From contig CAZFHY010000002.1 of NCBI GenBank assembly GCA_964519305.1, positions 1 through 64,000 of the forward strand: a stretch of 64,000 nt of DNA. Reading direction: 5' to 3'. Source of the stretch: Candidatus Undinarchaeota archaeon. GTDB taxonomy: Archaea > SpSt-1190 > JASMDC01. Below the pieces are notes generated by a model. That model did no database searches and was not told where the DNA came from. It saw nothing but the letters and a program-made list of their open reading frames with translations. This document shows positions 1-29,937 of the stretch, piece by piece. The position numbers and the translations under genes were made by a program. Within the stretch, counting starts at the first letter, position 1, and every line of letters starts with the position of its first letter.

Positions 1-320
1 GGCGGCCCCATTCCTGGCGGCCCTCCCGGGGGTCCCATTCCTGGTGGTCCCATTCCCGGCGGACCCAGGCCCATCCCTGGCGGCCCCATTCCTGGTGGTC
101 CCATTCCTGGTGGACCCATACCGGGGGGTCCCATCCCCGGCGGTCCCATTCCTGGCGGACCCATACCGGGCTGCCCCATATCGGGGGGTCCCATTCCCGG
201 CGGTCCCATCCCTGGTGGACCCATACCGGGTGGCCCCATCCCTGGCGGCCCTCCCGGGGGTCCCATTCCTGGGGGCCCCATCCCTGATGGCCCCATTCCT
301 GGTGGTCCCATTCCTGGCGC
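1..320 (-). repeat. Degenerate 15-bp coding tandem repeat (~19-20 copies) encoding Gly-Met-Gly-Pro-Pro
   Basis: Recurrent CCCAT(T/C/A)CC(T/C/G)GG(T/C/G)GG units on the + strand. Variation falls mainly at third codon positions of the minus-strand frame. Confidence 0.9.
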
Positions 321-503: not shown

Positions 504-505
504 GG

Positions 506-919
506 TTACTTACGCTCCTCCACGACCTTTCTGGCGATCCGCTCAACATCGGCTGCAGTGAGGATGTTAGCGGGGTTTACGAGGTTAATGAAGCTCTCCA
601 GCTCAAGGAGCTTCCCACGAGGTGCGAACTTCTGCATCTCGACGCGAATGAGCTTCAACTCCTTGATGATACGACCGATCTGGTCGCGTAATTCTTCGGT
701 GGCGATTGTGACGTTCTTGAGGTGACTGGCCGTCTTCTTGGACTCATCCATATAGTTGTTGTTGAGCATCTCAAGGTCGCTGGAGACCTTCTTGATCCTG
801 TCCTCCAGCATGCGGATGCGACGACTGTTGGATATAGCTGTCTTAGAAGCCTCATTGATGGCGTTCATCAGCTGGGGGTCGGCCCCGCCCCCCATGAACC
901 GGCCCATGTCTAATGGCAC
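506..919 (-). CDS. Conserved hypothetical coiled-coil protein (pilus-locus associated, DPANN-like)
   Basis: GTG start with GGAGGT SD at 929-934 (minus). Heptad-rich RRIRMLEDRIKKV...LKLIRVEMQKFA...FINLVNPANILTAADVERIARKVVEE. Confidence 0.8.
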   Translation of the reverse strand: MPLDMGRFMGGGADPQLMNAINEASKTAISNSRRIRMLEDRIKKVSSDLEMLNNNYMDESKKTASHLKNVTIATEELRDQIGRIIKELKLIRVEMQKFAPRGKLLELESFINLVNPANILTAADVERIARKVVEERK

Positions 920-933
920 TACGGCTATACCTC

Positions 934-974: not shown

Positions 975-1000
975 TTTCGAGTCCCGGTCTCTGGGTCATC

Positions 1001-1010: not shown

Positions 1011-1044
1011 CAGGAAGGACATTACCTTTACTAGAGGAAAGACC

Positions 1045-3348
1045 ATGGTTCGTCCGGCGGTTGGCTGCTGCGAGTTCGAGCTCGTGGGCGAGGAGAGCGG
1101 TGAGGACACTATCCGTGTGAACTGCGTGGGTTGTCCCTACGGTTCGTCCCTCGAGGACAGCGAGGTCTGCATGCTCAGGACCATGAACAAACTATCCCAG
1201 GTCCGGACCGCGACCAGGGTGATACTGGCCGAGCGTCGGCTATATGAGTACGGTCAGAACCAGACAGCGATGCTCAAGGAGATCGTTCGGATCATCGAGC
1301 GGATCCGCGCCACACCACAGCTCTTCAATCCGGGGATGATGGGCACCAACAACATCCGATGCACAAGGTGCTTCCCGGCCCGTTTCCGGTACATCCAGAC
1401 CCTTATTACGGACACCCTGCGCAGGGATCCCATCTCTGCCTATGTGGACATGCGCCGCACCATCCGTCATGAGGAGATGTATGTCAAGAAAGAGGTGGGT
1501 GAATGCCAGGCCTGCACCGCGTACTACGTCTCCCGCGTGCTCAATGTCGTGCTCAGCATGCTGGAGAGCCTTCACATAATCAGGGGTGTCAAGCCCTATC
1601 TTGAGGGCCATCGGGAGGGCGACCGAAGCATCTATCAGAAGGTGCTCAAACCGGCCATCCGTCCCAACTTCATGCTCACGCGAATGATGGCGGACTTCCC
1701 TCAGGACGCTGAGGAGGTGGACAGTTACAAGGTACCAGGTGACATCAAGGTAACCATCCTGAAGGTCCCCGGCATGGTCCGTAACATCTATCATACGATG
1801 CCTCCCGAGTTGAAGCTCTCCGAGGACGAGTTCGGCGTCCTTGACATGGCCCGGCAGGTGCTGGCCGCCCACAATCCCGAGAGCGCAGAGCTCCTGGACC
1901 CCGAGCGGATGCGCACCACGTTCCTTGACATATCCAAGGACCTCATCAGCGAGTTCGCGCTACGCGAGCAGCTCCAGCTCGACAGGGAGCGTCTTGATGT
2001 GCTCGCAGAGGTGCTAACGCGGGAGACCACCGGTTACGGCATCTTGGAGGTTATGCTCGCCGATGAGCGGGCACAGGACCTGTCGGTGAATGCGCCGCCC
2101 GGGGAGCTGCCGGTGTTCATCTTCCACGCTGACTTCGAGGACACGGAGTCCAACATAATCCCCACTCGCGAGGAGGTTGAGAGCTGGGCAGCCCGTATGC
2201 GTCTGTCGTCCGGTCGCCCCTTGGACCAGGCCAATCCTATCCTCGACACGTCCATCGAGCTACCCTTCGCCCGCGCACGTGTTTGCGCCGTTACCCGTTC
2301 GCTCTCGGCCTATGGGCTGGGATTCTCGATCCGACGTCACAGGGACAATCCCTGGACACATCCTCTCTTCATGAAGGTGAAGATGATCAACGCCCTCGGG
2401 TGCGGGCTGATGTCCTTCTTTATCGACGGCGCCCGTACCATGCTCGTGTGTGGTACCCGCGGCTCGGGGAAGTCGGCGTTCCTTGGCGCGAACCTCATCG
2501 AGATCATGAGGCGCTACCGCATCATCACCATCGAGGACACCCTGGAGCTGCCTACGGTGTTCATGCGCAAGCTGGGATTCAACATCCTATCGATGAAGGT
2601 CGGATCGGCACTGGGAGGCACATCGAGCTCTGAGCTGACGCCTGCTGACGGTATCCGCGCTTCCCTTCGTCTTGGTGACTCGGCCCTCATCCTTGGTGAG
2701 GTGCGTTCTCTGGAGACGATAGCTCTCTACGAGGCCATGCGGGTCGGTGCGGCGGCCAACGTCGTAGCTGGGACCATCCACGGGGACAGCCCGTTCGGTG
2801 TGTTCGACCGCGTTGTCAACGACCTTGGTGTGCCCAAGACCTCCTTCAAAGCGACCGACATTATCGTTTTCGCCCGACCCATCCGCTCAGCGGACGGACT
2901 CCACAAGCTGCGCCGTATCACCGAGATAGTCGAGGTGGGCAAGGACTGGATGGACGATCCCGAGAGGGAGAACGCTTTCCACACCCTCATGGAGTACGAC
3001 ACGAAGAAGGACGAGCTCATACCGACGTCCACTCTCATCGACGGAGAGTCGGAGGCCATCTCGGCGATCTCCGGAACGGTAAAGGAGTGGGTGGGTAACT
3101 TCGATGCGGTGTGGGCGAACATCGAGATGCGTGCCGAGTACAAGCGGCGTATCCTCGACCATGTGACCCGGGCGAAGATGCCACAACTTCTCGAGGCACC
3201 GTTCGTCGTGCAATGTAACGATATGTTCCACATCCTGGTCGGCGAGGTGACCGACGAGCTGGGGAGCGCTGTACCTGACGAGGTTCTCGGACGCTGGACC
3301 ACGTGGCTCCGCAAGGCCATCAAGGAGGAACGGGGCCGCAAGAAGTGA
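1045..3348 (+). CDS. Type IV pilus / type II secretion assembly ATPase (FlaI/PilB/TadA family) with Cys-rich N-terminal extension
   Basis: Walker A GTRGSGKS, Asp box TIEDTLEL, Walker B LILGEVR, His box GTIHG. N-terminal CxxC pairs CVGC, CTRC, CQAC. Confidence 0.93.
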   Translation: MVRPAVGCCEFELVGEESGEDTIRVNCVGCPYGSSLEDSEVCMLRTMNKLSQVRTATRVILAERRLYEYGQNQTAMLKEIVRIIERIRATPQLFNPGMMGTNNIRCTRCFPARFRYIQTLITDTLRRDPISAYVDMRRTIRHEEMYVKKEVGECQACTAYYVSRVLNVVLSMLESLHIIRGVKPYLEGHREGDRSIYQKVLKPAIRPNFMLTRMMADFPQDAEEVDSYKVPGDIKVTILKVPGMVRNIYHTMPPELKLSEDEFGVLDMARQVLAAHNPESAELLDPERMRTTFLDISKDLISEFALREQLQLDRERLDVLAEVLTRETTGYGILEVMLADERAQDLSVNAPPGELPVFIFHADFEDTESNIIPTREEVESWAARMRLSSGRPLDQANPILDTSIELPFARARVCAVTRSLSAYGLGFSIRRHRDNPWTHPLFMKVKMINALGCGLMSFFIDGARTMLVCGTRGSGKSAFLGANLIEIMRRYRIITIEDTLELPTVFMRKLGFNILSMKVGSALGGTSSSELTPADGIRASLRLGDSALILGEVRSLETIALYEAMRVGAAANVVAGTIHGDSPFGVFDRVVNDLGVPKTSFKATDIIVFARPIRSADGLHKLRRITEIVEVGKDWMDDPERENAFHTLMEYDTKKDELIPTSTLIDGESEAISAISGTVKEWVGNFDAVWANIEMRAEYKRRILDHVTRAKMPQLLEAPFVVQCNDMFHILVGEVTDELGSAVPDEVLGRWTTWLRKAIKEERGRKK

Positions 3349-3352: not shown

Positions 3353-5533
3353 ATGGCCGATCCCCCCAAACCCGAAGGAAGGACCATCGGAACGGGTTCG
3401 TACTCCATCAACATGAACGAGCTCGATCAGGTGTACCAGCGGTACAAGAAGGGTCCGAGCCAGCCCTTGGGCTGGGGCGCCGGGATGCAGCAGAACATGG
3501 GGGATTCCCGGTCCCGCTCCTATTCGATATTCCAGCAGGAGGAGTCAGTACACGAGGATAATCCGATCGAGAACGCCTACCGGATGGCCGGGAAGTACAT
3601 TCCCATCGAGGCACCACCTGAGATCGCTTCCTTCATCAACAACAGCCTGAAGATGTCACAGTTGAGGGTCACGGCCAACGATGTCATGGCCTTGTCCATC
3701 GGGATCCTTCTTGTAACGTTCGTTATCGGGTTCGCCATCATCGCCGTGCCCTTCATGTGCAAGGATACGGGCACCGGTACGAAGTGCTACTCTTTGGGCG
3801 ACCAGTCGGGCCTTGCAGGCATCACCGCGATCATGGCCCCCATCGTGTTTGCTATAGGTGTAATCCTATATCCCATGTTCCGCACTACGGTGTCCAAGGT
3901 GCATATTGCAGGGACAGCACCACTGGCCGTTTTGTATATCGTTATCTACCTGCGTTCATCGCCGAGCCTTGAGTCGGCGGTAGCGTTCTCAGCAAAGAAT
4001 GTGACCGGTCCGCTGGGTGACGAGCTCAAGCATCTCCAGTGGGGGGTGGCGACACGGGAGTTCCCTGACACTCAGCAGGCCCTTGTGCAGTTCAGCGAGA
4101 AGGTGCAGGACTGGGCGCCAGGTATCTCTGACGCTTTCTATCTCATAGCCGGTTCGACCCAGCAGCCCACGCCAGAGAAGCGCGTCGAGATGCTCGACAA
4201 GGCGGTCAACGGCGCGCTAACGTCCACTCGCCACACCATGCAGCAGTTCGGCCGTTCGCTACAGATGCCCGCCATCGTGGTGAACGCCCTGGGCATCCTG
4301 CTACCGGTCATGGGGCTCGTGATGGCCCCCATCGTCACTATCATGCTCTCAGATGGCGGAGGTGTCGATATAACCCTCGCCGTGCTCTATAACGTGATCC
4401 TCCCGGCGATCATCCTGATGATCATCTATGTTCTGGGGAGCCGTCGTCCGGGTTCGTTCTCCAGTGTCGACGTGTCACAGCATCCCGACGCTCCGAAAGA
4501 TGGATGCTACAGGCTCAAGATGGGTGGCTCGACGTACGACATCCCGCTGCTCCCCATCTCACTGCTGGTGTTCGTCCTAGGGGCGGCCTACAGCGGTGCA
4601 TTCCTCATCAACGAGTACGTGCTGGGATCTGGCGCTGACGCGAGCGCGCTCCAGGATCCGACCCGGGCCTTCCAGACCATGCCCGTCATCGTGTGCACGG
4701 GTGCGGCCATCGGCATATACGGCATCGGTATGTCCTCGCAGCGCATGTCCATCCGCAACCATATCAAGGACACAGAGAAGGAGTTCTCCTCCGCGCTCTA
4801 TCAGCTGGGGAACATAATGAACCAGGGACAGCCCTTCGAGATCGCCGTAACCCGTGCAGCAGAGATCATGTCCACATCGGTCATGCGGCCGTTCCTGATG
4901 GCCATCGCTCGCAACATACAGCAGTTGGGTATGCCTTTGCGCCAGGCCGTGTACGATCCTGAGTACGGTGCTTTGCGCTACTGCCCTTCAGATCTGGTGG
5001 CCAACGTGCTGGAGATCGTCATGGACTCGACCAAGCGTGGTGTGCGCATCGCGGCCACGACCACCATGAACATCGCAACCTACCTCGATAACATCGAGGA
5101 GGTGGCCACCGAGATCGAGGGCCTGCTCTCCGAGTCGATGTCCAGCATGAAGTTCCAGGCCTACCTCCTCGCCCCCGTGGTGTGCGGTATCATCGTCGGT
5201 CTCTCACAGATGATCACAGGCATCCTGGCGGGCGTTGGGCAGAAGGTGGATGAGGGTGGTCTTGGCGGGCAGATGACGGGCGGCGGGATGGGCGGTGCAT
5301 TCAGCACCGAGAACGCCGTGCCCCCCGACCGGCTCCAGCTCATCGTCGGTATCTACATAGTCCAGCTGCTATCCATCCTCGGCTACTTCTGTGCCCTTCT
5401 TGAGAGCGGGCCAAATGACACGGTGGCCATGTACCAGAGCATAGGGCAGACGGTGCTCATAGGTACGGTCGTGTACAGTGCAGTCTGCATCGTCACCACC
5501 ATGGTGTTCGCCGGGATGGCCACGTTCGTGTAG
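3353..5533 (+). CDS. Type IV pilus membrane platform protein (TadB/TadC, FlaJ/PilC-like, two T2SSF-like halves)
   Basis: Starts 4 nt after the ATPase. Multiple TM helices alternate with two helical cytoplasmic domains (LRSSPSLESAVAFSA; EFSSALYQLGNIMNQGQPFEIAV). Confidence 0.85.
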   Translation: MADPPKPEGRTIGTGSYSINMNELDQVYQRYKKGPSQPLGWGAGMQQNMGDSRSRSYSIFQQEESVHEDNPIENAYRMAGKYIPIEAPPEIASFINNSLKMSQLRVTANDVMALSIGILLVTFVIGFAIIAVPFMCKDTGTGTKCYSLGDQSGLAGITAIMAPIVFAIGVILYPMFRTTVSKVHIAGTAPLAVLYIVIYLRSSPSLESAVAFSAKNVTGPLGDELKHLQWGVATREFPDTQQALVQFSEKVQDWAPGISDAFYLIAGSTQQPTPEKRVEMLDKAVNGALTSTRHTMQQFGRSLQMPAIVVNALGILLPVMGLVMAPIVTIMLSDGGGVDITLAVLYNVILPAIILMIIYVLGSRRPGSFSSVDVSQHPDAPKDGCYRLKMGGSTYDIPLLPISLLVFVLGAAYSGAFLINEYVLGSGADASALQDPTRAFQTMPVIVCTGAAIGIYGIGMSSQRMSIRNHIKDTEKEFSSALYQLGNIMNQGQPFEIAVTRAAEIMSTSVMRPFLMAIARNIQQLGMPLRQAVYDPEYGALRYCPSDLVANVLEIVMDSTKRGVRIAATTTMNIATYLDNIEEVATEIEGLLSESMSSMKFQAYLLAPVVCGIIVGLSQMITGILAGVGQKVDEGGLGGQMTGGGMGGAFSTENAVPPDRLQLIVGIYIVQLLSILGYFCALLESGPNDTVAMYQSIGQTVLIGTVVYSAVCIVTTMVFAGMATFV

Positions 5534-5585: not shown

Positions 5586-8333
5586 ATGGTGGACTGTCGG
5601 GGAAGGCTCGCGTTGGTGCTCCTTATCCTTGGACTACTGCTCGCACCAGTCCTTGGTGCCCAGGCGGACAGCATCATCGAGGAAGTGGAACTGCGCCACT
5701 TGGACACGATGTCCATCCGGGCACGCTATGTCCTTCCTGCTGAATCCATGGAGCGGCTCACCGCCACGGCCTTAGCCGATATCTGTCGACGTCTGCCGTA
5801 CGAGGACTGCACATACACGGTAGAGGAGGGTGCTCGGACCGTCATCTTCGAGGCGACCGCCATCCCTGATATCGAGCTCATAGACGCTACAAGGGAGGGC
5901 GCTGAGACTACACTCACCTTCCGTCACCGGTACATCCCGCTACAATCGCGGTTGGGTTCAATCGGCGGGCAGGAACAGCGGCTCACCATTCGTTATCCCA
6001 CCCACGCCCTCGCGTATGAGGCGGTGCCGAGCCGGGAGATGGAGAACACGTTCGTGATATCGGGAGTGGCCAGTTCCGTGGAGTGGTTCGCCCGGGAGGA
6101 CCGGGTTCCCGTGGGTGATCCGATCGAGGTCGATATGGGTGAGGGAGAGTTCTGCTTCGTGGGCCTCTATATCGAAGGCCGGATGGTCGGCCGTGCCATG
6201 GCACTGGGATGCGGCCCGCTCATGCTCCCGACCGACTCTGCACTTGTGGGCAAGGATGCCGATGTCCGGCTCGTGAACTACGCCATGGGCGCGCTGCGAT
6301 ACACCGAGCTACCGCCCGGGTCCCTTGGCGTGCTGCCTCCGGAGTTCCCCATCAGGCTCCAGGTCACCCCGTACGAGGTTCCCTCCGGAGCCCCGTTCTA
6401 TATGCAGTTATTCACTGATGAACCGTTGACTGGGTGCTATATATCCCTGAACGACCGGGGCGGACATACCCTCATGACCAGTGAGTTCGAGCAATGTGAG
6501 AACATCCTCATCGGCACGAGCACCGCGTGGCGCGCAGGTGAGCACTACATCAAGGTCAAGGCTTACGCTGGGGCCCGGACGGGTGAGGCCGCAACGAACT
6601 TCATCCTAGTTGACAAGGCAGGGTTCCGCAAGGGACCCGAGCTCAATCTCGAGCAGAACGTCTACACTGCTGGTGAGCAGGTTAGGTTGTGGGGCGAGGA
6701 CCTGGGTGGCTCGGCCTACTGCAGTGCGCGTCTCGAGACCGCAGACGGCATCCTTGTCGAGGAGACGAACTCTCTTGGATGCGAGAAGGTCCATATGACA
6801 CTGGACGAGGAGCTATCAGCAGGTAACTATGTCGTCCGTACCGAGCTCATCGAACGAGGACGGCTCACTGGACGGGCCAGCTTCCCGTTCCAGGTACGCT
6901 CATGGAATCCTGAGCCCGGCTCCCCCGTCGCTCGCTTGTGTCCCGGTGGCGCCTTCCGTCTTCGCGAGGAGCGGTTGCCCTGCCTCCGCTCCGGGAACGC
7001 TTGCACTCCTACGTCTCTAGAGATCCCTCTTTGCTTGTGCTTCGGTTCCGGTGGGGAAATCGCAGATGTGTGTCACTTCGGCGAGAACTGTGGTCGTGTC
7101 AAGTGCGAGGAGCGGGCCGTCAGTCCCTACATGATAGTGTACCATGAGGGCCAGTGCCTGGCCCGGCGAGGGACCCATGCCCTTGCCTGTGCCCGTCAGG
7201 GCGAGATGTGCACGGGAGCGTGCGTATGCCTCTCCGATGACGGCAATCCCATCGCCCGCTGCGTGGGCGGGGAATTGTGTACAGATCGTGGGTGCGAGGC
7301 GCCGAGACTGTTGTTACGCGTGGATTCCGTCGAACCGGACATCGTGCGTGAGAACGAGGTGCGCGACGGCATCATGATCAAGGTCACAGGGGTCCTGAAG
7401 TACGATGGCAAGGTCATCAGGTCAGCGGACGTCGGTGTCACCGCCTACATAGCCGGCGAGGAGCACACAGGCATGATCGAGGACACCGTGGACGGCGCCC
7501 GGGTCATAATCACAGTGCCCTTGACGGGCGAAGTGCTCCCCGGGGAGTACCAGCTCACACTGCAGCTTGCCCGCGGGGACGATCGCGTGATGGTCCAGAA
7601 ACCGTTCACCGTATGGTACGCTGACGACACCCTCACCGTCCAGCAGGTCCAGTTCCAGGGGAATATCGCCCGGGAGGACCTGGCCGCAGGCAGCACTTTC
7701 AAGATGCGCGTCAAGCTCCTCGACCAAGGTGGTCGGGAGATGCTCGGTGTGCCCGTGGATTCCATGGACCTGGACATCGACGGTGTTACGATCAATTCGC
7801 TGGCAGCGAAGTACGAATCCGGTTCCTACATCGTCGTCGGTAGCCTTGAGGCAGACCTCCCAGCAGGTTCTAGGCGCGTGAAGTTCGCCATTGAGCACCT
7901 GGGGCGCCAGGGCGAGCTCACAGGCACGCTGAGCGTGCTTGACGAGCCGCCGCTGTCCATGTCCATCCTCGACGTGGAGCCCGGGAAGAAGGAGAAGCCC
8001 ATCCTGTTCATCCTCCTCTCTGGTCTTGGTTTCGACCTGGACGTATATCTCAATATCGGCGGAGTCGAGCAGATCACAAAGGATAACATGAAGGTGACGA
8101 TCAACGGACAGGACATCACCCGTCTCATGACGTACGCCGTGAACACGAACAAGGGCGTCCGCATGCACCTCTCTGCGGTAAGCGTCTGTCCCGATGTACC
8201 ACCCCAGGGTGCAAAACTGTTGCTCGAGGCGACCCTCTCACGGGACAGTGAGAGCGTATCCGACCGGATCGTGCTACACACCCGGGGGAATCCCGGTGAC
8301 TGGTCCAACATGGGGGTGGCCGGCTGTGCATAG
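5586..8333 (+). CDS. Large secreted/surface protein with Ig-like beta domains and a central Cys-rich module pair
   Basis: ATG 5586 gives a signal peptide MVDCRGRLALVLLILGLLLAPVLGAQA. Repeated PGEY/AGNY-type Ig signatures. Two related Cys modules (CLCFGSGGEIADVCHFGENC; CVCLSDDGNPIARCVGGELC). Confidence 0.75.
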   Translation: MVDCRGRLALVLLILGLLLAPVLGAQADSIIEEVELRHLDTMSIRARYVLPAESMERLTATALADICRRLPYEDCTYTVEEGARTVIFEATAIPDIELIDATREGAETTLTFRHRYIPLQSRLGSIGGQEQRLTIRYPTHALAYEAVPSREMENTFVISGVASSVEWFAREDRVPVGDPIEVDMGEGEFCFVGLYIEGRMVGRAMALGCGPLMLPTDSALVGKDADVRLVNYAMGALRYTELPPGSLGVLPPEFPIRLQVTPYEVPSGAPFYMQLFTDEPLTGCYISLNDRGGHTLMTSEFEQCENILIGTSTAWRAGEHYIKVKAYAGARTGEAATNFILVDKAGFRKGPELNLEQNVYTAGEQVRLWGEDLGGSAYCSARLETADGILVEETNSLGCEKVHMTLDEELSAGNYVVRTELIERGRLTGRASFPFQVRSWNPEPGSPVARLCPGGAFRLREERLPCLRSGNACTPTSLEIPLCLCFGSGGEIADVCHFGENCGRVKCEERAVSPYMIVYHEGQCLARRGTHALACARQGEMCTGACVCLSDDGNPIARCVGGELCTDRGCEAPRLLLRVDSVEPDIVRENEVRDGIMIKVTGVLKYDGKVIRSADVGVTAYIAGEEHTGMIEDTVDGARVIITVPLTGEVLPGEYQLTLQLARGDDRVMVQKPFTVWYADDTLTVQQVQFQGNIAREDLAAGSTFKMRVKLLDQGGREMLGVPVDSMDLDIDGVTINSLAAKYESGSYIVVGSLEADLPAGSRRVKFAIEHLGRQGELTGTLSVLDEPPLSMSILDVEPGKKEKPILFILLSGLGFDLDVYLNIGGVEQITKDNMKVTINGQDITRLMTYAVNTNKGVRMHLSAVSVCPDVPPQGAKLLLEATLSRDSESVSDRIVLHTRGNPGDWSNMGVAGCA

Positions 8334-23100: not shown

Positions 23101-26100
23101 GTTGTTACAGCAGGCATCGGTACTATCGGCGTTGGACACCTTGCGGTACTCGCCAGCGTCGTCACCACAGCATTTATCGATCTCGCCACCGATATTGTAG
23201 TTTGTATTACCATGGCAGGCCTTGCAGTAGTTGGAGTTATCGTCAAGGTCCACCCAGGTTCCCGCCTTGCAGTATTCGCCGTTAGTGGCCGCGTCAGAGA
23301 GATGTAGCGACGTGTGCGCGCATCCGCTGTTAGCATAGCAGTTGTTGGCGAACACACAGTCGTCGGTCTTGTCACAGCAGGCATCGGTCGAGTCGGCGTT
23401 GTTGGTCCTACGGTACTCGTTGGCGTCGTCACCGCAGCAGAGGTGACGTGAGCCGCCGTCATTGGAGTGGATGCTCCACCACACGTCCTTGTTCACACAG
23501 TTCTTGTGACAGTAGTCCTTCGTGTCCCAGTTGACGGTGTACTGGGTCCGTGTCCGGGATTCTAAGAGGCTGTTACCCTGTATGGCCACGCCGTCCCAGT
23601 TCTTGCCCGTGAAGGTGTAGTCGACCTTAGTCTTGTAGTCGCCCTCGATACGGCAGTAGTTCTTGTTCCCGCCGATGGTGACGGACTTATCGGCTTCAGG
23701 CGTATATGACGTATACTTGCACTCGTGTTGGACACCTCCCTCGTCGCTGCTGGGATTGATAGCGATGACCTGCGGGCAGCTCATGGCCTTGTTATTGATG
23801 AAGTAATGGCCACCTACCCAGAACCATAGCTTGGCGTTGAGCACGAGCGAGCACGAGAACACCTTGAGGTTTGTCTTGTCGACCCAGCTGTTGGCGAACT
23901 TCAACGCTCCACCGTTGATACAGTTGTTGCCCACGTGGTTGATGTACGCGTTGGACGTGTAGTAACCGTTACGGCTGGAGCAGAAGTCGGCCCAGTTGAA
24001 GTTGTACGTCTGGCAGTTGGATTCCCTCGAGCCCGATGAGCACGACGCGTCGCACTCCTTCTCAGCGCTGCGGTGAGCGTAGGTGCTGGTACTGGGAGAC
24101 GTCGTGCCTGGTACGTAGAAGTAATACCTGATCTTGTCCTTGATGACACAGTTGTAGAGGTTGTGACGTGAGATGGCCGATGTCTTGCCTGTCTCGATCT
24201 TCGTACCATCGCAATTAAGACGCTTGTGCTCGATGTTGGTCTCGGCCTGGTACCAGCCGGGGATCTTGCACTCGTGGAAGTCGTACTTGCACTCGTGGTC
24301 CCGCTGTGTCTCCGATGCCGAGTTCGCGCAGGTCGAGCTGCACAGCACGCCTGTGAACTTGTGGAGCTGGGTGTTACCTGTGGCCTGATGGTAGATGCGG
24401 ATCTCGGCATACTCGGGCGCGTCCTGCCACACACCGTTGACGCACCACTCGATAGCGCCGTCAGAATCGATGTCGCCCTGCCATCCATTGTTCTTGCAAC
24501 TACCAAAGCCCACGCAATCCTTGTTGGAGTTGCAGCATGCCTTATTATCCCCATTGCACGCGTTCTTGATCTGCTCGTCGGAGGCACAGGTCCTGTACCA
24601 CTCGTTGTTGTCGTCACCACAGCATGAGGATGCGGCGATCTCGCCGCCAAGGTTCCAGGCAACACCGCTGTCCATGGCCCCGGTGGTCTTATCCGTAAAG
24701 CATGATGTCGAGCAGTAGGTTCCGGAGTGCCCGTCCCAGTTGACGTTGTAGAGCGTGGAAGTGAGGTCCTGGTAGGCGTTCTCGAGAGTACTTCCGTCCC
24801 AGTTCTTGCCTGCATAGTGGACCCTGACCTTCACGTTGTGATCGCCCTCACGGTCACACTGTCGCTTCTGTCCACCGGCGTTGACGTACTTGTCAGGGCT
24901 CCATCCCGTGTACGTGCACGCTACGTTCGCATTGTGGTTCGAAGGATCGTACGAGAACTGGTCGGTGGGGCAGGTCAGCCATTTGGCGTTGACGTAGTAG
25001 TGGCCGCCCACCCAGTACCACACCTGCATGGTCGTGTCCAGAGCGCATGAGAACGCCTGGCCGTAATTGAACCACTCGTTCTTTGCGTAGAAGTTGCCGT
25101 TATGGCAGTTGCGACCCGAGTACTCCATATAGGCCTTGGTGCTGTAGTAACCGTTACGCTTCGTACAGAATGACGTCTCGGGGACAGTTACCGACGGACA
25201 GTCCGTCTTGCGCTCGTACTTGTCGACCGGTTTGTGGCATACCGTGGAGCAGTCCTTCTTGGCGGACGTCCAGGCCTTGGTGCCGCTCGGATCGTAGGCG
25301 TAGTACGTAACATGATCGGTGATGACGCAATTGTAGAGGTTGTGTTTCCCGATGACCGAGGTCGTACCGGCCACCATAGCCTTCCCGTCGCAGTTGGGTC
25401 GGTTGTGGTTCACTGTGGTCTCGGCCTGGTACCATCCGGGGATGTAGCACTCGTAATAGTCGAACTTGCACTCCTGCTGTCGCTGTGCATAAGCGCCGGT
25501 GCCGGACGGACAGGTGGTCGTGCATGCGACATTGTTCTGGGTCTTGATGAGCCCGGCCGTCTCGTGATAGATGCGGACCTGTGAGTATTCCACAAGGTCC
25601 TGCCATGCCCCGTTGACGCACTTTTCCTGTGCCTTGTCACCGTCCGCATCCCCCGTCCAGCCGTTATCGTAGCAGTTTCCAAAGCTCACGCAGTCGTATC
25701 GTGCTTTGCAGCAGGCCTTGTTGTCACCGTTGCATGCGTTCTTGGTATCCTCGTTGGTCTCGCACGTGCGATACCACTCAGAGCCGTCATCACCGCAGCA
25801 GGAGGACGCTGCAGTCTCTCCACCGATGTTCCATGCTATACCGTTATCGTGAGCCCCGGTGGTCGTGTCGCTAACACAAGTGGGGTTACAGTAGGTGCCC
25901 GAATGCCCGTCCCATGCGACGTTGTACTGGGTGTTCGTCCAACTTTCCTTGAGGTGGGATCCGCCGTGGAGGTTGCTGCCGTCCCAGTTCTTGCCCGAGA
26001 AGGTGTACTCTACCTTGGCGATATAGTCGCCCTCCTTCTGACAGTAGCGTTTCTGTCCGCCGACGTCGACAAAGGTGCCTGCAGGCGGGGTCCAGGCCGT

Positions 26101-29100
26101 GTATGTGCACGCGTGTTCCACCGCGTCGTTCTTGGCCGGGTTGTGTGAGTACGTCTTGGGGCAGGTCATGGCCTTTGCGTTGACGAAGTAGTGGCCGCCC
26201 ACGTAGAACCATGTCTTGGCAGACGCTGTTAGCGAGCACGAGAACACCTTGAGGTTGGTGTTATCGGACCAGCTCGTAGTGTGCTTGAGCGCCTGACCGT
26301 TCACGCATGAGTGTCCGTTATGCACATATCGGGCATTGAGCGAGTAGTAGCCGTACCCGTGAGCATTGTTGCACAACGCAGCCTCGTCGATGGCCACACC
26401 ACCACAGTCCACCTGGTACGTACCGCTGGAGCAGGACACAGGACACGTCATTGACTTGGACCACACCCGCTTGCTGCTGGAGGTCGTGGGCGATGTCACA
26501 CCGGGTTTGAAGACGTAATAGGTCACGTCGTCGTTGACAGTGCACTGGAAGAGGTTGTGGCGGCTGATGGACGACTGCTTGCCGATGTCCACCTTGGCAC
26601 CGTCGCACTCGGTACGCTTGTGATCGATAGTGGTTTCGGCTTGGTACCATCCGGGGATCTTGCATCCTGAGCTGGAATACGTGACGGGGCACTCGTGGTA
26701 CCTTTGGGTCTCCGAAGATGTACCGGAGCAGGAGTTAGTGCTGCAGAGCACGTTATTGAAGGTCTTGATGACGTTATTGCCGGTATGCTGGTGGTAGATA
26801 CGGATCTGCGCGTACTCGGGCGCATCCTGCCACACACCGTTAACGCAGTACTCGATGGCACCATCACTATCAGCGTCCACCTGCTTGCCGTTGTTGTAAC
26901 AGCTCCCGAACGATACACAGTCCTTCTGGGCATTGCAGCAGGCCTTGTTATCGCCATTGCATGCGTTCTTGATGGTCTCGTCAGTGGCGCATGTCCGATA
27001 CCACTCACTGCCATCGTCGCCGCAACAAGTGGTCGCCGCGGTCTCGCCGCCGAGGTTCCATCCCATACCACTGTCCAAGGATCCCGTTGTCTGGTCTGTA
27101 CGACACGAAGTGGAGCAGTAGGTACCGGAATGTCCGTCCCAGTTGACGTTGTAAAGGGTATTGGAAAGACTGTCGGACGTTACGCCCAGGTTAGTCCCAT
27201 CCCAGTTCTTTCCCGAGTAGGAGACCGTGACGGTCATCACATGGTCCCCCTCTTTATCGCACTGTCGCTTCTGTCCACTAACGGTGACGTACTTATTGGG
27301 GCTCCAGCCCGAGTATGTGCAATCAATGACCGCGCCGTTGTTCGCGGGATCGTGGGAGAACTGGTCGGATGGACAGCTCATCGCTTTATTTGAGAAGTAG
27401 GTGTGGCTGCCGCCCTTGTAGGTGACCTTCATAGCTGTGTCCAGACCGCAGGAGAACGCCTTCACGTTGGTGTTGTCCGACCAGCTGGTAGTGTGATGTA
27501 GCGCACTACCGGTCTTGCACGAGTACCCTTTGTGCTGGATGCGACTGTTGACGGTATAGAATCCGCTACGGCTGGAGCAGATCGCTGCCTCGGGAACGTT
27601 GTAGCCAGGACAGGACGAAGTGTACACCTGGTCTGACGGGCATGATGCAGGACAGTCCACGTCCTTCTTGTGGGAATACCCGCTGGTCTTGGGTGCCGTC
27701 ACACCTGGCGGGTACACGTAGTAGGAGCCCTTGTCGATGATGTTGCAGGTGAACAGGTCGTGCTTGCCTATCTGGGATGGGGTGCTCGCCGCCATGGGCA
27801 GTCCGCTGCAGGTGGGGCGGTTGTGGTCCAGGGTAACCTCGGCCTGGTACTTACCGGGGATCTTGCACCCCGAGCTGGAGTACGTCCATGAGCACACCTG
27901 GTAGCTCTGAGCTTCCCCGCTCGTTCCGCTCGGACATGAGGTAGTGCACTCAACACTGTTCTGGGTGTGGAGAAGGCCCACTGTCGCATGGGACACACGG
28001 ATCTGCGCGTACTCCTTGACGTCCTCCCAGGTACCGCTATTGCACTTTTCTGTGGCCTTATCTCCGTCCGCGTCGCCCTGCCAGCCATTGGCATAGCAGT
28101 TGTTCTTGGATACACAGTCCGTCTTGTGGGAGCAGCACGCGACCCCGTCACCGCTGCACGCGTTCTTGACCAGTTCGTTCGAGGTGCAGGTGCGGTACCA
28201 CTCCCCGCCATCGTCACCGCAGCAGGTCGTGGAGGCCGTCTCGCCGCCGAGGTTCCAGCCGACACCACTGTCACCAGATGTCTTGTCGTTGAAGCAGGTG
28301 GTGGTGCAGTATGTACCGGAATGGCCGTCCCAGTTGACGTTGTACTTGGTTACTGTTAGCGACTCCTTGAGGTGTGAACCGCCGTGGAGGTTCGAGCCGT
28401 CCCAGTTCTTGCCGGAGAAGGTGAAGTCGACCTTGGTATTGTAATCCCCCTCCTTCTCACAGTAACGCTTCTCGCCACCCACGGTGACGTAGGTGCCTGC
28501 CGGAGGCGTCCAGGCGCTATATGTGCACGAGTGGAGCCCGACGTCCCCCTTGGATGCGTCGTACTCGGCGATGACATCAGGACAGGTCATGGCCTTTTTG
28601 TTGATGAAGTAGTGACTGCCCACGTAGAACGACACTTTTGCGGACATGTCCAGGCCGCAGGAGAACGCCTTCACGTTCGTGTTGTCCACCCAGCTGTTCT
28701 TGACGTAGAGGTTACCGCCGTTGATGCACGATTGTCCCTTGTGCTGGATGTAGGTGTTGACTGAATACCAGCCGCCTGTGTTGGCGCAGATGGCCGGTTT
28801 GTCGATGGTGACCGTGGGACAGGTCGAGGTGTACACCTTGTCAGAGGGACAGGAGGCCGTGCAGTCCACGTCCTTCTTCCAGGCATACCCGCTGGTCTTG
28901 GGGTTGGTGACCCCCGGCGGGTAAACGTAGTAGGTACCCTTGTCCTTGATATCGCATGTGAACAGGTCATGCTTCGTGACCGAACTGGTGCCCCCCACGA
29001 CGCCTGACGCCTTGCCGTCGCATTCGGGCATTGCGTGAGTGACCGTGGCCTCGGCCTTGTACTTGCCTGGGATAGTGCAGCCCGACTTGGGATAGGAATA

Positions 29101-29937
29101 GGAGCAATCAGTTTGCCGCTGGCAGTTCTCGGTGGTGCATGGGCACGAGGTGGTGCACTTGATGTTGTTGATGGTCTTGATGAGGCCTGCTGTTTCGTGA
29201 TAGATCTTGATCTGTCCGAACTCGGGGCACTCGTATATCTTTTTTGTGAAGTAGCTGGTGGTCCCCTGCGATGGCTGGCCATCGCACTCGTTCCGGCCGT
29301 GCTGGACGGTGATCCTGGCCTCCACCATCCCGGGGCCTTTACACGAATTGTAGGTGTGGGTGAAGGTGGACTCCGCCTGGCAGTTTGTTCCGGTGCATGG
29401 ACAGGTGCGACCTGCCTCCACTACCGCCGTATCCCGATGGGTACCAAGGCCGTCGTAGTACTTGATCGTGGCGATGTCGTTGCATTCATACAGGTTACTG
29501 ATGCTGGTGACAGAGGTGCCTCCTTGGGTGCTCTTCCCGTCGCACTCTTTGCTGGAGTGCGTGACCGTTAACCGGCCCTTGACCCAACCAGGCGTGGTGC
29601 AGGTCCTTGGGTAATTGTAACTGGTCTCGCAGTACCGCTGGCAGTTGACACCGGTACACGGGCACGAGCAGGAGATGGGGACGCTGTTGATGGTCTTGAT
29701 GACATTGTTATTCCGGTCGAGGAGCTCTAGCTTCGCCGTATCCGAAATGGCAGGCTGGACGGCGAGGACAACGAGGAAAGCGGTGAGAATGAAGAGGGAT
29801 GCGAGTGAGATTGCGGGTCGTGCGCTGGCGGCACGAGCCTGCAGGAGGGCGTACAAGCGGTGAGATAGAGGACGACCTAGAAAAACCTGGCTAACACTGG
29901 TCTTGCTATTAAGGAGTTGCACTTGCCTCCCTACCAT
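14170..29937 (-). CDS. Giant (5255 aa) secreted cysteine-rich repeat protein, putative adhesin/surface filament
   Basis: Single 15.8-kb ORF with an N-terminal hydrophobic segment (SLASLFILTAFLVVLAVQPA). 13 CC(G/E/Q)DD motifs, 11 C-x-x-EG(D/E)(Y/H/W) motifs, 10 DxDxD-type loops. No C-terminal TM anchor. Confidence 0.92.
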   Translation of the reverse strand: MVGRQVQLLNSKTSVSQVFLGRPLSHRLYALLQARAASARPAISLASLFILTAFLVVLAVQPAISDTAKLELLDRNNNVIKTINSVPISCSCPCTGVNCQRYCETSYNYPRTCTTPGWVKGRLTVTHSSKECDGKSTQGGTSVTSISNLYECNDIATIKYYDGLGTHRDTAVVEAGRTCPCTGTNCQAESTFTHTYNSCKGPGMVEARITVQHGRNECDGQPSQGTTSYFTKKIYECPEFGQIKIYHETAGLIKTINNIKCTTSCPCTTENCQRQTDCSYSYPKSGCTIPGKYKAEATVTHAMPECDGKASGVVGGTSSVTKHDLFTCDIKDKGTYYVYPPGVTNPKTSGYAWKKDVDCTASCPSDKVYTSTCPTVTIDKPAICANTGGWYSVNTYIQHKGQSCINGGNLYVKNSWVDNTNVKAFSCGLDMSAKVSFYVGSHYFINKKAMTCPDVIAEYDASKGDVGLHSCTYSAWTPPAGTYVTVGGEKRYCEKEGDYNTKVDFTFSGKNWDGSNLHGGSHLKESLTVTKYNVNWDGHSGTYCTTTCFNDKTSGDSGVGWNLGGETASTTCCGDDGGEWYRTCTSNELVKNACSGDGVACCSHKTDCVSKNNCYANGWQGDADGDKATEKCNSGTWEDVKEYAQIRVSHATVGLLHTQNSVECTTSCPSGTSGEAQSYQVCSWTYSSSGCKIPGKYQAEVTLDHNRPTCSGLPMAASTPSQIGKHDLFTCNIIDKGSYYVYPPGVTAPKTSGYSHKKDVDCPASCPSDQVYTSSCPGYNVPEAAICSSRSGFYTVNSRIQHKGYSCKTGSALHHTTSWSDNTNVKAFSCGLDTAMKVTYKGGSHTYFSNKAMSCPSDQFSHDPANNGAVIDCTYSGWSPNKYVTVSGQKRQCDKEGDHVMTVTVSYSGKNWDGTNLGVTSDSLSNTLYNVNWDGHSGTYCSTSCRTDQTTGSLDSGMGWNLGGETAATTCCGDDGSEWYRTCATDETIKNACNGDNKACCNAQKDCVSFGSCYNNGKQVDADSDGAIEYCVNGVWQDAPEYAQIRIYHQHTGNNVIKTFNNVLCSTNSCSGTSSETQRYHECPVTYSSSGCKIPGWYQAETTIDHKRTECDGAKVDIGKQSSISRHNLFQCTVNDDVTYYVFKPGVTSPTTSSSKRVWSKSMTCPVSCSSGTYQVDCGGVAIDEAALCNNAHGYGYYSLNARYVHNGHSCVNGQALKHTTSWSDNTNLKVFSCSLTASAKTWFYVGGHYFVNAKAMTCPKTYSHNPAKNDAVEHACTYTAWTPPAGTFVDVGGQKRYCQKEGDYIAKVEYTFSGKNWDGSNLHGGSHLKESWTNTQYNVAWDGHSGTYCNPTCVSDTTTGAHDNGIAWNIGGETAASSCCGDDGSEWYRTCETNEDTKNACNGDNKACCKARYDCVSFGNCYDNGWTGDADGDKAQEKCVNGAWQDLVEYSQVRIYHETAGLIKTQNNVACTTTCPSGTGAYAQRQQECKFDYYECYIPGWYQAETTVNHNRPNCDGKAMVAGTTSVIGKHNLYNCVITDHVTYYAYDPSGTKAWTSAKKDCSTVCHKPVDKYERKTDCPSVTVPETSFCTKRNGYYSTKAYMEYSGRNCHNGNFYAKNEWFNYGQAFSCALDTTMQVWYWVGGHYYVNAKWLTCPTDQFSYDPSNHNANVACTYTGWSPDKYVNAGGQKRQCDREGDHNVKVRVHYAGKNWDGSTLENAYQDLTSTLYNVNWDGHSGTYCSTSCFTDKTTGAMDSGVAWNLGGEIAASSCCGDDNNEWYRTCASDEQIKNACNGDNKACCNSNKDCVGFGSCKNNGWQGDIDSDGAIEWCVNGVWQDAPEYAEIRIYHQATGNTQLHKFTGVLCSSTCANSASETQRDHECKYDFHECKIPGWYQAETNIEHKRLNCDGTKIETGKTSAISRHNLYNCVIKDKIRYYFYVPGTTSPSTSTYAHRSAEKECDASCSSGSRESNCQTYNFNWADFCSSRNGYYTSNAYINHVGNNCINGGALKFANSWVDKTNLKVFSCSLVLNAKLWFWVGGHYFINNKAMSCPQVIAINPSSDEGGVQHECKYTSYTPEADKSVTIGGNKNYCRIEGDYKTKVDYTFTGKNWDGVAIQGNSLLESRTRTQYTVNWDTKDYCHKNCVNKDVWWSIHSNDGGSRHLCCGDDANEYRRTNNADSTDACCDKTDDCVFANNCYANSGCAHTSLHLSDAATNGEYCKAGTWVDLDDNSNYCKACHGNTNYNIGGEIDKCCGDDAGEYRKVSNADSTDACCNNNNDCTNGNTCYSQGTCLQTNHAGSNEADYNGEYCQAGTWRDQDDSATYCNACGSNKYNIGGDVAKCCEDDANEFIRTCETQQDAGAGCAGSSDNLACCDKSTDCVFNGNCYATGWSGDIDNDYAKEKCVSGKWQDSPEYAQIRIFHNAGGKFYTIDNVLCTSACPGASGYVTPPEGAGDIKLRIMDQSNNVVDTFYPECSITCSGGKRTITCSAFKYTACPVAGKIKARLDFPAYPDESGCKKQAAESTDIVDLYTCAEGGKERTHECPYDFNECLVPGTYQAEATINHNRGNCDGMPMVPGGTSAISKHNLYTCTITDKVNYRLYKPEGGQAWDSGKKDCTTACVHNGQAYELKSECPTITIPETTVCSSNKGYYTLKGEIKHAGRNCYNKDFKNNPIWIDRGKIFSCSLTTTMQVYYYVGGHYYVNGEWASCPADQFSKDPTNHNANVECTYSGWNPDRYVTVSGQKRQCDREGDHYFKARVHYAGNNWDGTTLEDAYQDLTKKEYNIEWDGHSGTYCTASCFDDRTTGAKDKGIVWNIGGEVHGNKCCGDDNNEWYRFCETIEEVATACDRGADDLACCNDKNDCVYNNGCYNNGYNADVDGDKAKEKCENGVWKENPEYAQIRIFHDYAGKIHTINNVECSSTCPNKNGYTERSQSCPYDFYECLAPGWYSTEGTLYHDRANCDSTPMIASTTSVFGRVNMYNCVITDEVRYKIISPKTSKAYQADRTCSTGCVAGGDLQEINWHDTNGISSRRRNNAADRLLTCAVAKPIDTCDEKGWYKGNVKYTYEGKRCDYSANMPATEEFTRNKLFFCYVGSPASVDYYVYDGSGGKEWNSGALACHSTGQLGFCSNSNEISSLNCPSKDYTLCKVAGKYTTKAKFTFESPACNDLPAVPEEWHGPIDLYRCSPAYYRIRAKTSGNIKQNWKLMTCHKGACTSNDNKELDASCTTEWVDTAHCDEEGDWQSQTKFYFNKECDGKASQVGDQTIGWDTIYNVNWDTKRYCTTVCTGKTVYWDIGGVGGTRHLCCQDDGSEYKIDCVSQEKQGSNACSVSTDDTACCDQSNDCLYQNVCYNNAWEGDVDGDGHKEYCAAGTWRDLPIVTAKITIQNLEKVQVNDATVSCTDVDCGVAAGTTSCAYNNGNDKVECTFFSQASGVWCTGSCSYSYNMCTVGGLYTGHVDFKYTGWNMGAAAFDEATRYLVTGEQNYYHCGYTTTATVWVFDPDSTVIDNAATSCGLTMRNNGYAYGTTVCGYAFNPDGTNYFDLTATSYTPKKPPTPSADIVETRKAKYCRKEGDYTAKVRFAYTGTMFGNSPGEMSALTATSQEYTEKLFTVNWDQSDGYWCDLACFDDQTAGDGGIEHAIGGDDTQCCGDDADNWITHCVSREKAGVNLCVYSSDDKACCDQDSDCIFNDKCYDDGFSEDLDFDDMPEFCDEGIWKDMPGIASKIWIWNQENQRVDAHSMTCGTVMCGPISGSNQCTYDEPANEMACDYYLFGCIDCTAPCFYGYNECTIGGWYYGYTEYLFTDIPCGTERNKGDRVYPVSYAQPLGPTANMWYYCGYTATAKLWFNTPVGTIRAGQDMTCGPLTYRFGNTPNGNTACSYQFKDPANTGTHFWTIDSLSTSPTAGTQTWTENDLFCRHEGEYSTDVIYYYTGRMFDRSALTATQQTIHKFLYHVNWDDELSTNKAPDGSSHPSRYCGPKCVSDTTPNDEQNNLLDGSKDGIAWGIGGDDGGTRNKCCGDDANEFIHYCKSLEHSVKACKGDQVQDVACCDKTTDCVANNKCYDDKWEGDVDSDGANEYCNQGSWKDLPRVTAKIWVASPEKPIRESVDITCSALNCGVPGGATSCTYPDSGNQVICTFYSTFTGVSCIGTCTYNINECTVGGAYDGHVEFTYQGWNSPTESFSLKTEYANVVEHDQYYYFCGYETESLITIDKPTGRVIDHTGMTCDLTFRNGNSDQGTTHCGYIFKPDGTNYFDIDAYSTSLTTWNWARTYREHYCREEGDYTLTVDFSYHGENNRHALDRDRRFDNTPNANDPALGITAQQKVVVMYKVSWDDDGNVNLDPDGRREPARYCDLRCFDDRTPPATKPFDKGIGWEQGGDIGKCCGDDDNEWMLDCRSEEKPGTKKACESSTDNNRACCNEYTDCIANNKCFNDKWEGDVDSDGLNEYCHQGVWKSLPKVTAKLYIQSPKDRQDGTYFDGNSAGRDYSCTAMDCGVASGITSCSYPYNSDTSTCTYYSTDFLGLTCKATCTLAYNGCKTGGTYDGKTDFVLEGYDGTRDLDIDSSYINAAETNQQYYYFCGYETTSALTFKRPGATVFTDQGMSCGLTSRSGSNTYGLGTCTKTVTDSSVGITSLDLIAKTTGYASADITWNWKNWYCRWEGDYKTSVTFTYHGEKDRKGAWSDDRKDRRFGDVPTSDNDLLTNGAGLSHPGHRVTDLLLYSVDWDDKKGTNKDPITRVASPSVYCRLDCFNDKTTTQGDFGIAWNLGGDAPDGKTACCGDDNNEFYLKFFTTDLDGPYTQNDVDQEVADLEPGAMNKYDACCDKANDCVWDNQCYAHGVTICIASGQQQDIRKCENNVWKTIQTCADGHRCEEGGTNRLLYLDGSCVDSNPKGTAKCEYDIDESRTVQCRTDATDCPEDEQNVDGSCKSLSGADRGDDTKAPGVCIDYLGCSDNVCAKRIYRDTCRTEGDTWVFEYLRSGSTCIGHWVDCEGHEYNKCATELIEEDNDTYNGKINIYNAFGINYQCKLNEKGRGFCWDQERLPATLTNFTCDPFVCDVESHKCTDFCTKAKHCAGGEIGRSICIEGDEDPDKGVCGFSCRPIDNSKWYQKWDPLNPNSDPQTGEYRGLCCNQITISGNLWGTFYIEMFREPPPIIISNTTMDMIVYTFPEHVKFAETSPRVYGDGTFETKFEKAGELEKACFNVGQYFLEIVLPDYEVSTTKLLTVSTKEDGRSLKVQIGDLTLPTGS

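Follow-up and report, generated by a model that had tools for sequence, protein, structure and literature searches.

What kind of system is encoded by a 30-kb block in which the genes of a pilus-type secretion machine lie close to the gene of a 5255-aa, Cys-rich giant protein? The block occupies positions 1-29,937 of the window, by which we mean the whole 64,000-nt stretch of DNA analyzed here. The window forms the beginning of contig C2 (CAZFHY010000002.1) of the genome of a Candidatus Undinarchaeota archaeon (the host genome, G000; assembly GCA_964519305.1), and we compared it with a collection of 17 Undinarchaeota genomes that includes a sister species of the same genus, G006. An earlier note, made from the letters of the DNA, had proposed that the block is a single, undescribed attachment system whose machine exports or displays the giant. 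The seven genes on which the proposal was built (a GMGPP-repeat gene, a coiled-coil gene, a secretion ATPase, a platform, two proteins of 915 and 614 aa that we call p915 and p614, and the giant) are all present at or near the places given for them, as judged from the open reading frame (ORF) listing and translation. We nevertheless arrive at a different reading, to which we assign a probability of roughly 0.6: the block is a composite of a type IV filament (T4F) core, a p915-p614 cassette, and an independent operon for the giant, and not one system.

In this composite, the core consists of a hexameric-type secretion ATPase, a fused platform, and two divergent accessory genes, all vertically inherited, and it would still assemble pilins encoded on another contig, C11, after their cleavage by one of four A24 prepilin peptidases. 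The p915-p614 cassette sits in the operon position formerly held by pilins. We propose that a prepilin peptidase cleaves p614 and that the T4F machine handles it, either as a large minor or tip pilin or as a helix-anchored stalk, and that each p614 would hold its p915 partner, giving about 20 variable surface-binding modules. The giant would leave the cell via Sec, with membrane partners of its own, and would not be a substrate of the pilus machine. The interest of the locus thus lies in what replaced the pilins beside the core and not in the core itself. DPANN biology hinges on cell-cell contact, and few of the molecules that make this contact have been described. Here, a lineage with a genome 3-6 times the size of its relatives' genomes carries, in one operon with the core, one of the large prepilin-type proteins whose family has expanded roughly 20-fold and whose members each have a secreted partner. 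Should these proteins be pilus-borne or machine-anchored binding modules, they would be concrete, testable contact proteins, and T4F would have diversified by swapping large substrates.

The ATPase-platform core

The machine is pilus-type, as had been supposed, in that an ATPase and a platform protein of T4F type stand next to each other on the plus strand. The 767-aa ATPase (1045-3348, plus strand), a DPANN-type member of the PilB/FlaI/TadA superfamily, matches PF00437 at 53.7 bits (cut-off 24.9). Its best solved relative is the GspE-type ATPase of Archaeoglobus (2oap, 4.4e-25), followed by CpaF (1.1e-15) and FlaI (3e-15). The score against the NCBIfam FlaI model NF058587 is 106.1 bits, for a cut-off of 550, and the score against the TadA family is 103 bits. 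The five other T2SSE ATPases of the host genome that were scored against the FlaI model reach 222-444 bits, and paralogues within the genome are only 22-29% identical to the ATPase of the window. The earlier note held that the machine is not an archaellum, and this is borne out both by the FlaI score, which does not mark the protein as an ATPase of the FlaI/ArlI type, and by the archaellin search, in which the best PF01917 match in the whole host genome (21.7 bits) stays below the cut-off of 29.5.

The ATPase is well conserved beyond its genus. Full-length identity is 94% to the copy in the sister species and 49-56% to 12 orthologues in other Undinarchaeota genera; the nucleotide-binding stretch GTRG[SA]GK[ST] and other core blocks are kept in 14 ATPase sequences, and an N-terminal extension of about 300 aa is conserved among orthologues across the phylum. 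The description of the ATPase as Cys-rich holds for this protein, which contains 13 Cys residues. Its CxxC pairs, however, are a feature of its own genus; two of them recur in G001, but conservation is lacking in the other families, so that the trait is not a general one.

Downstream of the ATPase lies the gene of a 726-aa polytopic protein (3353-5533, plus strand), which finds no match in Pfam, the T2SSF family included, or in NCBIfam; the platforms of relatives have no Pfam match either. When a profile built from 14 platform sequences was aligned with the T2SSF proteins of the host genome by hhalign, residues 98-411 matched with a probability of 93.7 (E 2e-7) and residues 462-687 with a probability of 93.3 (E 2.8e-7). 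Because the profile matches T2SSF proteins twice, we take the platform to be a fused two-domain protein. A homologue is present in all 17 Undinarchaeota genomes at E<=1e-75. The ATPase adjoins the platform in the loci of 14 of the 16 other genomes, and in the remaining two the contig ends inside the platform gene. A small ATPase gene found upstream of the secretion ATPase in genomes of the group f4 is Rad51/RadB-like and not a clear FlaH.

Two further genes are divergent from the ATPase. The gene next to it (506-919, minus strand) encodes cc137, a 137-aa probable coiled-coil protein that is single-copy in the host genome; weak matches to coiled-coil families alone suggest the coiled coil. Beyond it, at the very end of the contig and cut by it, is the GMGPP-repeat gene (3-503, minus strand), of which an N-terminal part of 167 aa is present here. 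Searching the genomes of GTDB for the ATPase returned at least 570 related loci. Identity is 46-56% in the 80 best of them, most of them nearly full-length, and they are titled Woesearchaeota, Nanoarchaeota, Nanobdellota, Undinarchaeota, and some other labels; the closest named loci belong to Undinarchaeales/Undinarchaeota, in agreement with the DPANN affiliation that had been assumed. Gene neighbors were counted in the 78 of these 80 DPANN loci that have a full ATPase, with the loci that have enough flanking DNA as denominators. The platform adjoins the ATPase in 57 of 68 loci, and the co-occurrence with the two upstream genes that the earlier note had suggested examining is found as well: upstream of the ATPase and in divergent orientation, a cc137-like gene is present in 47 of 64 loci and a GMGPP-like gene in 42 of 59. 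Since they recur in this position across DPANN loci, we consider the two upstream genes part of the core unit, and the genes at 1-5533 are, on the strength of these sequence comparisons, the predicted DPANN-wide core of a T4F machine.

The claim that the system is undescribed does not hold for this core. The unit of ATPase, platform, and two divergent upstream genes recurs in DPANN archaea, and DPANN pili are already in print: the available text of Dombrowski et al. (2020; PMC7414124) reports pili encoded in all Undinarchaeota metagenome-assembled genomes (MAGs), and that of Sivabalasarma and Albers (2026; PMC13705601) describes a DPANN arrangement in which ATPase and platform are adjacent and pilins are dispersed, and it counts 1990 genomes with system-1-type pilins. 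The pilus core is therefore of a known kind and ordinary for DPANN.

Among characterized machines, the Epd pili of Methanococcus maripaludis (system 1; EpdL, EpdJ/EpdK, EppA) offer a close comparison. Both systems combine a secretion ATPase with a T2SSF-type platform, and in both the pilins are encoded away from the ATPase. The available text of PMC3875500 gives as the rule, for Methanococcus pilins processed by EppA, a short signal whose last residue is Gly and which is followed by Gln at +1; here, too, short signals end in Gly or Ala, with Gln at +1 in p614 and in some pilins of contig C11. The two systems differ in that the platform is one fused gene here and two genes in Epd, that the ATPase carries the DPANN-conserved N-terminal region of about 300 aa and is accompanied by the two divergent accessory genes, that proteins as large as about 600 aa are among the putative substrates, and that Glu at +5 is absent from p614 and the Class_IIIsignal family finds no match.

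T4F machines are known to serve secretion, DNA uptake, and adhesion alike, and on this general ground the core might be a pseudopilus for DNA uptake or protein secretion, with p915 and p614 as cargo or accessory proteins. We find this hardly credible. No DNA-binding or competence component is found among the Pfam and NCBIfam matches in the locus, and p915 needs no pseudopilus for its export because it has a Sec signal of its own, while the data themselves do not separate adhesion from uptake.

Pilin genes and the p915-p614 cassette

If the core is an ordinary one, where are its pilins? Small-genome relatives have, behind the platform gene, genes for 5-10 small proteins whose N-termini read M[KR]G and then a hydrophobic stretch; in many cases, the last product of the array measures 550-750 aa. 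These pilin-like proteins have no Pfam match. By BLAST they match four genes of the host genome at C11:7126-12623. The earlier note had remarked that neither an archaellin nor a small pilin is visible, which is true of the window; a homologous pilin-like array is nonetheless present on contig C11 of the same genome. We read this, from gene content and order, as an ancestral locus that is split, with the putative pilin array now away from the ATPase and platform. The note's reading was also said to fail if the ATPase were of an archaellum or similar clade with canonical pilins encoded elsewhere; pilins were indeed found elsewhere in the genome, and the ATPase is not of the archaellum family. 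The array around the four genes (C11:5343-14501) comprises 12-13 same-strand genes with N-terminal hydrophobic segments, some of which are preceded by RAQ or RGQ. Peptidase_A24 genes are present in all 17 Undinarchaeota genomes; the host genome has four over the cut-off, none of them in the locus. The parts by which a T4F is recognized, namely an ATPase, a T2SSF-type platform, class III (prepilin-type) substrates as judged by motif, and Peptidase_A24, are thus all found in this genome.

In the window, the position behind the platform is taken by p915 (5586-8333, plus strand) and p614 (8326-10170, plus strand, with a GTG start at 8326). The ATPase, platform, p915, and p614 genes are separated by 4 nt and 52 nt and then overlap by 8 nt, a spacing that suggests one operon. 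p915 is a Sec-exported, Cys-rich, all-beta, multi-domain protein, as judged from its paralogue family and structure model. The N-terminus of p614, read from the GTG at 8326, which makes the 8-nt overlap with the p915 stop, is MHRQRGQ followed by MALFGLAAVALVVLVV (starting MALFG). This bears out the description of p614 as prepilin-like, insofar as the motif points to a class III signal. The same design recurs in the family: a basic stretch, [KR][GA]Q, and some 20 hydrophobic residues follow one another in 19 of 21 p614 paralogues, with the motif 0-3 residues from the hydrophobic segment. When the strict motif was searched for genome-wide, 21 ORFs matched, 16 of which are p614 paralogues.

The cassette is one member of a large family. 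The host genome encodes 22 p915 and 21 p614 paralogues, which share 21-37% identity, and these form 20 adjacent pairs, mostly overlapping by a few bases, in which p915 precedes p614 in 15 and follows it in 5. Sec-type signals are present in the p915 paralogues, whose Cys residues number 22-29 (24-29 in most of them). Neither p915 nor p614 belongs to a Pfam or NCBIfam family. With p614 as query, the host genome and the sister species give 27 matches each, and the remaining 15 Undinarchaeota genomes give none. Among 5.8 billion proteins, a word-indexed search found six homologues, one of which, P0061, is 55% identical; the two that carry a name are labelled Undinarchaeales. A metagenome scan with p614 returned nothing beyond copies that are 95-96% identical. 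In the available text of the literature on Undinarchaeota and DPANN pili, a search that took in journals other than subscription ones, we found no description of the p915-p614 pair family, and the expanded family looks new.

Structure models were obtained for both proteins. That of p614 (predicted local distance difference test score, pLDDT, 83.2) consists of a helix at residues 5-75, an alpha/beta region, and two beta-sandwiches. The C-terminal domain, residues 484-597, is transthyretin/CnaB-like, with 5aq0_B as a match (Z 9.6, root-mean-square deviation (rmsd) 1.7, 81 residues aligned). The AlphaFold model of p915 (pLDDT 82.8) is a string of beta-sandwiches with a Cys-rich center at residues 452-570. 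In a Foldseek search it matches generic macroglobulin- or Ig-type arrays at low template modeling (TM) score, such as 4u4j (5e-16) and GhpA (9fly_A, 1.1e-15, TM ~0.1). Co-folding of the two proteins, which the earlier note had put forward, was carried out with p614 residues 76-614 and p915 residues 456-915. The pair scored 0.39 and the best of three controls 0.00, with a contact agreement of at least 33% and a partner pLDDT of at least 76 in these runs. As calibration, the mark is reached by 116 of 157 solved complexes and by 2 of 215 mismatched pairs, and at scores of 0.60 or less by 18 of the 157 and by both of the passing mismatches; the result is weak support for a complex, obtained with part of p915. 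We infer a p915-p614 complex principally from the gene pairing, and we likewise infer from the class III motif that p614 would be processed and then handled by the ATPase of this locus.

The most serious alternative, somewhat unlikely in our estimate, is that the pairs have nothing to do with the T4F machine. The p614 N-terminus would then be an uncleaved anchor, each pair would be a two-component coat or spike of the kind that SlaB and SlaA form in the S-layer of Sulfolobales, and the position of one pair behind the platform would be accidental. The likeness to SlaA/SlaB is that of a large outer protein paired with a smaller, membrane-anchored one with beta-sandwich domains, and the C-terminal sandwich of p614 resembles a SlaB domain (8qox_B, Z 9.0, rmsd 2.4, 88 residues aligned), although this fold is a common one. 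The SlaB anchor is C-terminal. That of p614, in contrast, is N-terminal and carries a prepilin-type motif, the pairs number about 20 and are divergent where SlaA/SlaB is a single pair, and the Foldseek listing for p915 contains no match to SlaA. The motif speaks against this alternative. A plain anchor needs no near-invariant [KR][GA]Q, yet it is kept in 19 of 21 paralogues that are only 21-37% identical, and a motif of the same type occurs in the pilin array on C11. In addition, the window copy apparently shares one operon with the ATPase and platform.

Several observations nevertheless weigh against the composite reading where it ties p614 to the machine, and the first three of them lend weight to a T4F-independent pair. 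The Class_IIIsignal family (DUF361, PF04021) has no match over its cut-off in the host genome, p614 and the C11 pilins included; the best match scores 15.7 against a cut-off of 23.7. The two structure searches with p614, one of them by Foldseek, were filled by the C-terminal beta-sandwich and bear on this part of the protein, so that a pilin fold of the N-terminal part would be a conjecture. Just 1 of the 20 adjacent pairs adjoins the DPANN-type ATPase; the other 19 lie away from the core. At three of the 21 pair loci, T4F genes lie no more than 10 kb away: the core on C2, an A24 peptidase and a T2SSF-like gene on C15, and an ATPase and a T2SSF gene on C1; by a rough estimate, the proximity of the two loci other than the core is at about chance level. 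Finally, the Glu at +5 is absent from the p614 N-termini, and the weak co-folding support extends over about half of p915.

Another parallel for the cassette is the Sulfolobus bindosome (BasEF/BasABC). There as here, large class III proteins that are not pilins are probably handled by a T4F ATPase and platform, an idea that the available text of PMC13705601 puts forward under the term functionalised T4F. The systems are not the same. The ATPase of the window scores 41.9 bits against the BasE model NF053672, whose cut-off is 1000; p614 has no substrate-binding-protein domain by Pfam; and each p614 is paired with a Sec-exported partner, in 20 pairs.

A bolder picture can be drawn, which we offer tentatively and with considerable doubt. 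In a DPANN-affiliated lineage with a 3.6-Mb genome that is possibly free-living, an ancestral pilus may have been turned into a display platform for about 20 interchangeable recognition modules, each made of two proteins, a class III stalk of about 600 aa and a Sec-exported head of about 900 aa. Many of these modules would be flanked by Cys-rich giants and some by membrane-tethered winged-helix sensors, their use would be combinatorial and individually regulated, and 14% of the genome would be devoted to giant secreted proteins. Next to 5 of the 21 pair loci (e.g., L138:4976-5968, G000:C9) is the gene of a membrane protein of about 330 aa, part of which is extracellular and which ends in a winged helix (DUF7343 1.1e-11, MarR_2). 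By its domain composition it may be a cassette-specific sensor-regulator.

Two side observations concern the pairs. A Cys residue is conserved among the last one to four residues of both proteins, in the contexts ...[DE][DE]C in p614 and NPGxWxN(5)C in p915. An intermolecular disulfide between p614 and p915 through these C-terminal Cys residues was considered and is unsupported by Cys parity, since the counts are mostly even. On contig C15 of the host genome (C15:21050-39027), an A24 peptidase gene, a T2SSF-like gene of 425 aa, a p915-p614 pair, and the gene of a 1565-aa Cys-rich protein lie within 18 kb.

The 5255-aa giant and its operon

Is the giant, then, cargo of the machine? Its gene (14170-29937, minus strand) encodes 5255 aa with 348 Cys residues (6.6%), arranged in repeat modules of about 400 aa that we delimited from the anchors of the CC[GEQ]DD motif; there are 13 domains with this motif. 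No Pfam family matches over its cut-off (one match lies below it), and NCBIfam returns no named family. The earlier note had the giant directly facing the pilus genes. It does not, because three minus-strand genes that the note left unmentioned lie between: a peptide deformylase (10179-10628; PF01327, 3.6e-38), a 472-aa polytopic membrane protein with multiple hydrophobic segments and no assigned family (10689-12107; no Pfam or NCBIfam match), and a 677-aa membrane protein, which has hydrophobic segments and a C-terminal PRC barrel (12088-14121; PF05239, 1.8e-7, at residues 614-655). By spacing, the giant is the first gene of an operon that continues with the PRC protein after a 48-nt gap, the 472-aa protein after a 20-nt overlap, and the deformylase after a 60-nt gap. 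The p614 stop and the deformylase stop are 8 nt apart, and the giant is 4.0 kb away. The spacing suggests two convergent operons. Among the loci fetched, homologues of the 472-aa and 677-aa proteins occur in the sister species only, and the 472-aa protein is single-copy in the host genome. A peptide deformylase gene in an archaeal genome, at the end of the giant's strand, is an observation in its own right.

In the reading of the earlier note, the ATPase-platform machine exports or displays this giant and others like it as adhesins, and the locus is one unit. We consider this very unlikely. The single hydrophobic segment of the giant, at residues 38-68, is N-terminal, has no [KR][GA] directly before it, and is followed by a stretch of small residues, and from these features we read the N-terminus as probably a Sec signal or anchor and not a class III signal. 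Seventeen large proteins encoded next to p915-p614 pairs were inspected, and all have Sec-type and not class III N-termini. The gene order from the core through p915, p614, the deformylase, and the two membrane proteins to the giant is kept in G006, which would favor one unit; this synteny says little because G006 is 94-95% identical. The giant is, moreover, encoded on the other strand, with 4 kb and three genes in between.

The comparison with more distant relatives also speaks against one unit. The earlier note had asked whether the core co-occurs with CCGDD-repeat giants: all 17 Undinarchaeota genomes have the core, 7 have the CCGDD domain, and 2 have the full module of the giant. In five genomes of the group f4, the CCGDD domain resides in ORFs of about 1700-2600 aa that have Sec-type signals and are found on contigs other than that of the pilus core. 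Around the core in G001, G007, G009, G011, and G015, a stretch of 23-40 kb is free of ORFs that reach 1000 aa, and an ORF of at least 1200 aa lies near the ATPase in only 3 of the 80 DPANN loci. In the relatives, then, the giant is neither linked to the pilus locus nor correlated with it, which is the outcome that the earlier note had named as refuting its own proposal. The module itself is nearly confined to the genus: among 1.84 billion representative proteins, four match the full module at E<=1e-30, and the remaining 54 of 58 matches are to the CCGDD domain of about 100 aa.

Abundance also matters. The host genome contains 88 ORFs of at least 1200 aa, which sum to 516 kb or 14.2% of the genome, and with giants covering this much of the genome, one lying within a few kb of any given locus is a common occurrence. 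That the giant is 1 of 88 such genes calls for caution in deducing function from adjacency in this genome. These ORFs contain at least 3% Cys in 57 cases and at least 5% in 39; the longest encodes 8378 aa, and in one of 4130 aa Cys makes up 15.4% (further examples are C1:224716-249852 and C11:61164-73556). The giant itself has one paralogue in the host genome, at C15:53115-61331, 14 kb beyond the C15 cluster described above.

Some observations do favor a link between giants and the machine or its cassettes. Giants are enriched near p915-p614 pairs: 21 of the 88 lie within 7 kb of a pair, a zone that makes up 10.6% of the genome (binomial p 2.7e-4), and a giant is present, often abutting, at 16 of the 21 pair loci. 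The p value is overstated because neighboring genes are not independent. This enrichment joins the points that weigh against the composite reading, and some functional tie between giants and cassettes, which that reading treats as loose, may exist. In two f3 genomes, large Cys-rich ORFs follow the pilin arrays, but these are unrelated to the giant; at E<=1e-3, BLAST finds no similarity of the giant to large ORFs near the pilin arrays of relatives or to the 17 large neighbors of pairs. In three f4 genomes (L147, L148, and L149; G008:C2, G007:C21, and G011:C7), a Sec-type CCGDD giant adjoins the gene of an A24 prepilin peptidase. This synteny is probably one event because the three genomes are kin.

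The giant can also be set beside known giant surface proteins of other microbes. The grappling hooks of Aureispira, made of GhpA, are likewise very long, repetitive, secreted proteins, and the match between p915 and GhpA mentioned above is of the generic Ig-like stacking type. The SPEARE proteins of nanohaloarchaea, giant surface proteins of episymbiotic or predatory microbes, belong to the same class of comparison. Unlike these named giant surface proteins, the giant of the window has no sequence relation to a named family, and its 400-aa module is nearly confined to its genus.

Genome and assembly context

The host genome measures 3.63 Mb in 42 contigs at a GC content of about 59%, and marker genes put it at 99.8% complete with 4.3% contamination. 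The two species of the window's genus, G000 and G006, have genomes of 3.6-3.8 Mb, compared with 0.6-1.2 Mb in the 15 other Undinarchaeota, and the genus is thus DPANN-affiliated without a reduced genome. The available text of a 2024 report in mBio (PMC10936187) describes DPANN-affiliated MAGs of about 4 Mb that were suggested to be possibly free-living and that may represent another lineage than the present one.

The layout of the block is reproduced in per-run assemblies made from four runs of two studies, which may include the source of this DNA. In three of the four runs, positions 1-20000 form a single contig, complete or nearly so (X2 1-20000, X4 91-20000, X1 209-20000); in the fourth, X5, positions 1-14509 are on one contig and the remainder is in pieces. 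The per-run contigs all end inside the GMGPP repeat, with breaks at 1-209. This repeat is a 15-nt unit present in 21.5 tandem copies at 1-323, and the orthologue of the gene in G006 encodes 356 aa. The end of contig C6 carries, at C6:153164-153832 on the minus strand, a piece that matches the GMGPP part of the window at 9.6e-19; because of it, C6 probably joins C2 at the GMGPP gene, and the remainder of the gene probably lies at the end of C6. In an atlas, look-alikes of the GMGPP protein fall in DPANN clusters with scores of 0.87-0.88, which we note as a lead only.

Searches of the window for tRNAs and Rfam families gave no match. The part of the window beyond the block (30060-64000) is ordinary archaeal housekeeping and metabolism, with genes for PolB, Orc1/Cdc6, urocanase, an HDAC-type deacetylase, radical SAM enzymes, a beta-CASP RNase, and a MatE transporter.

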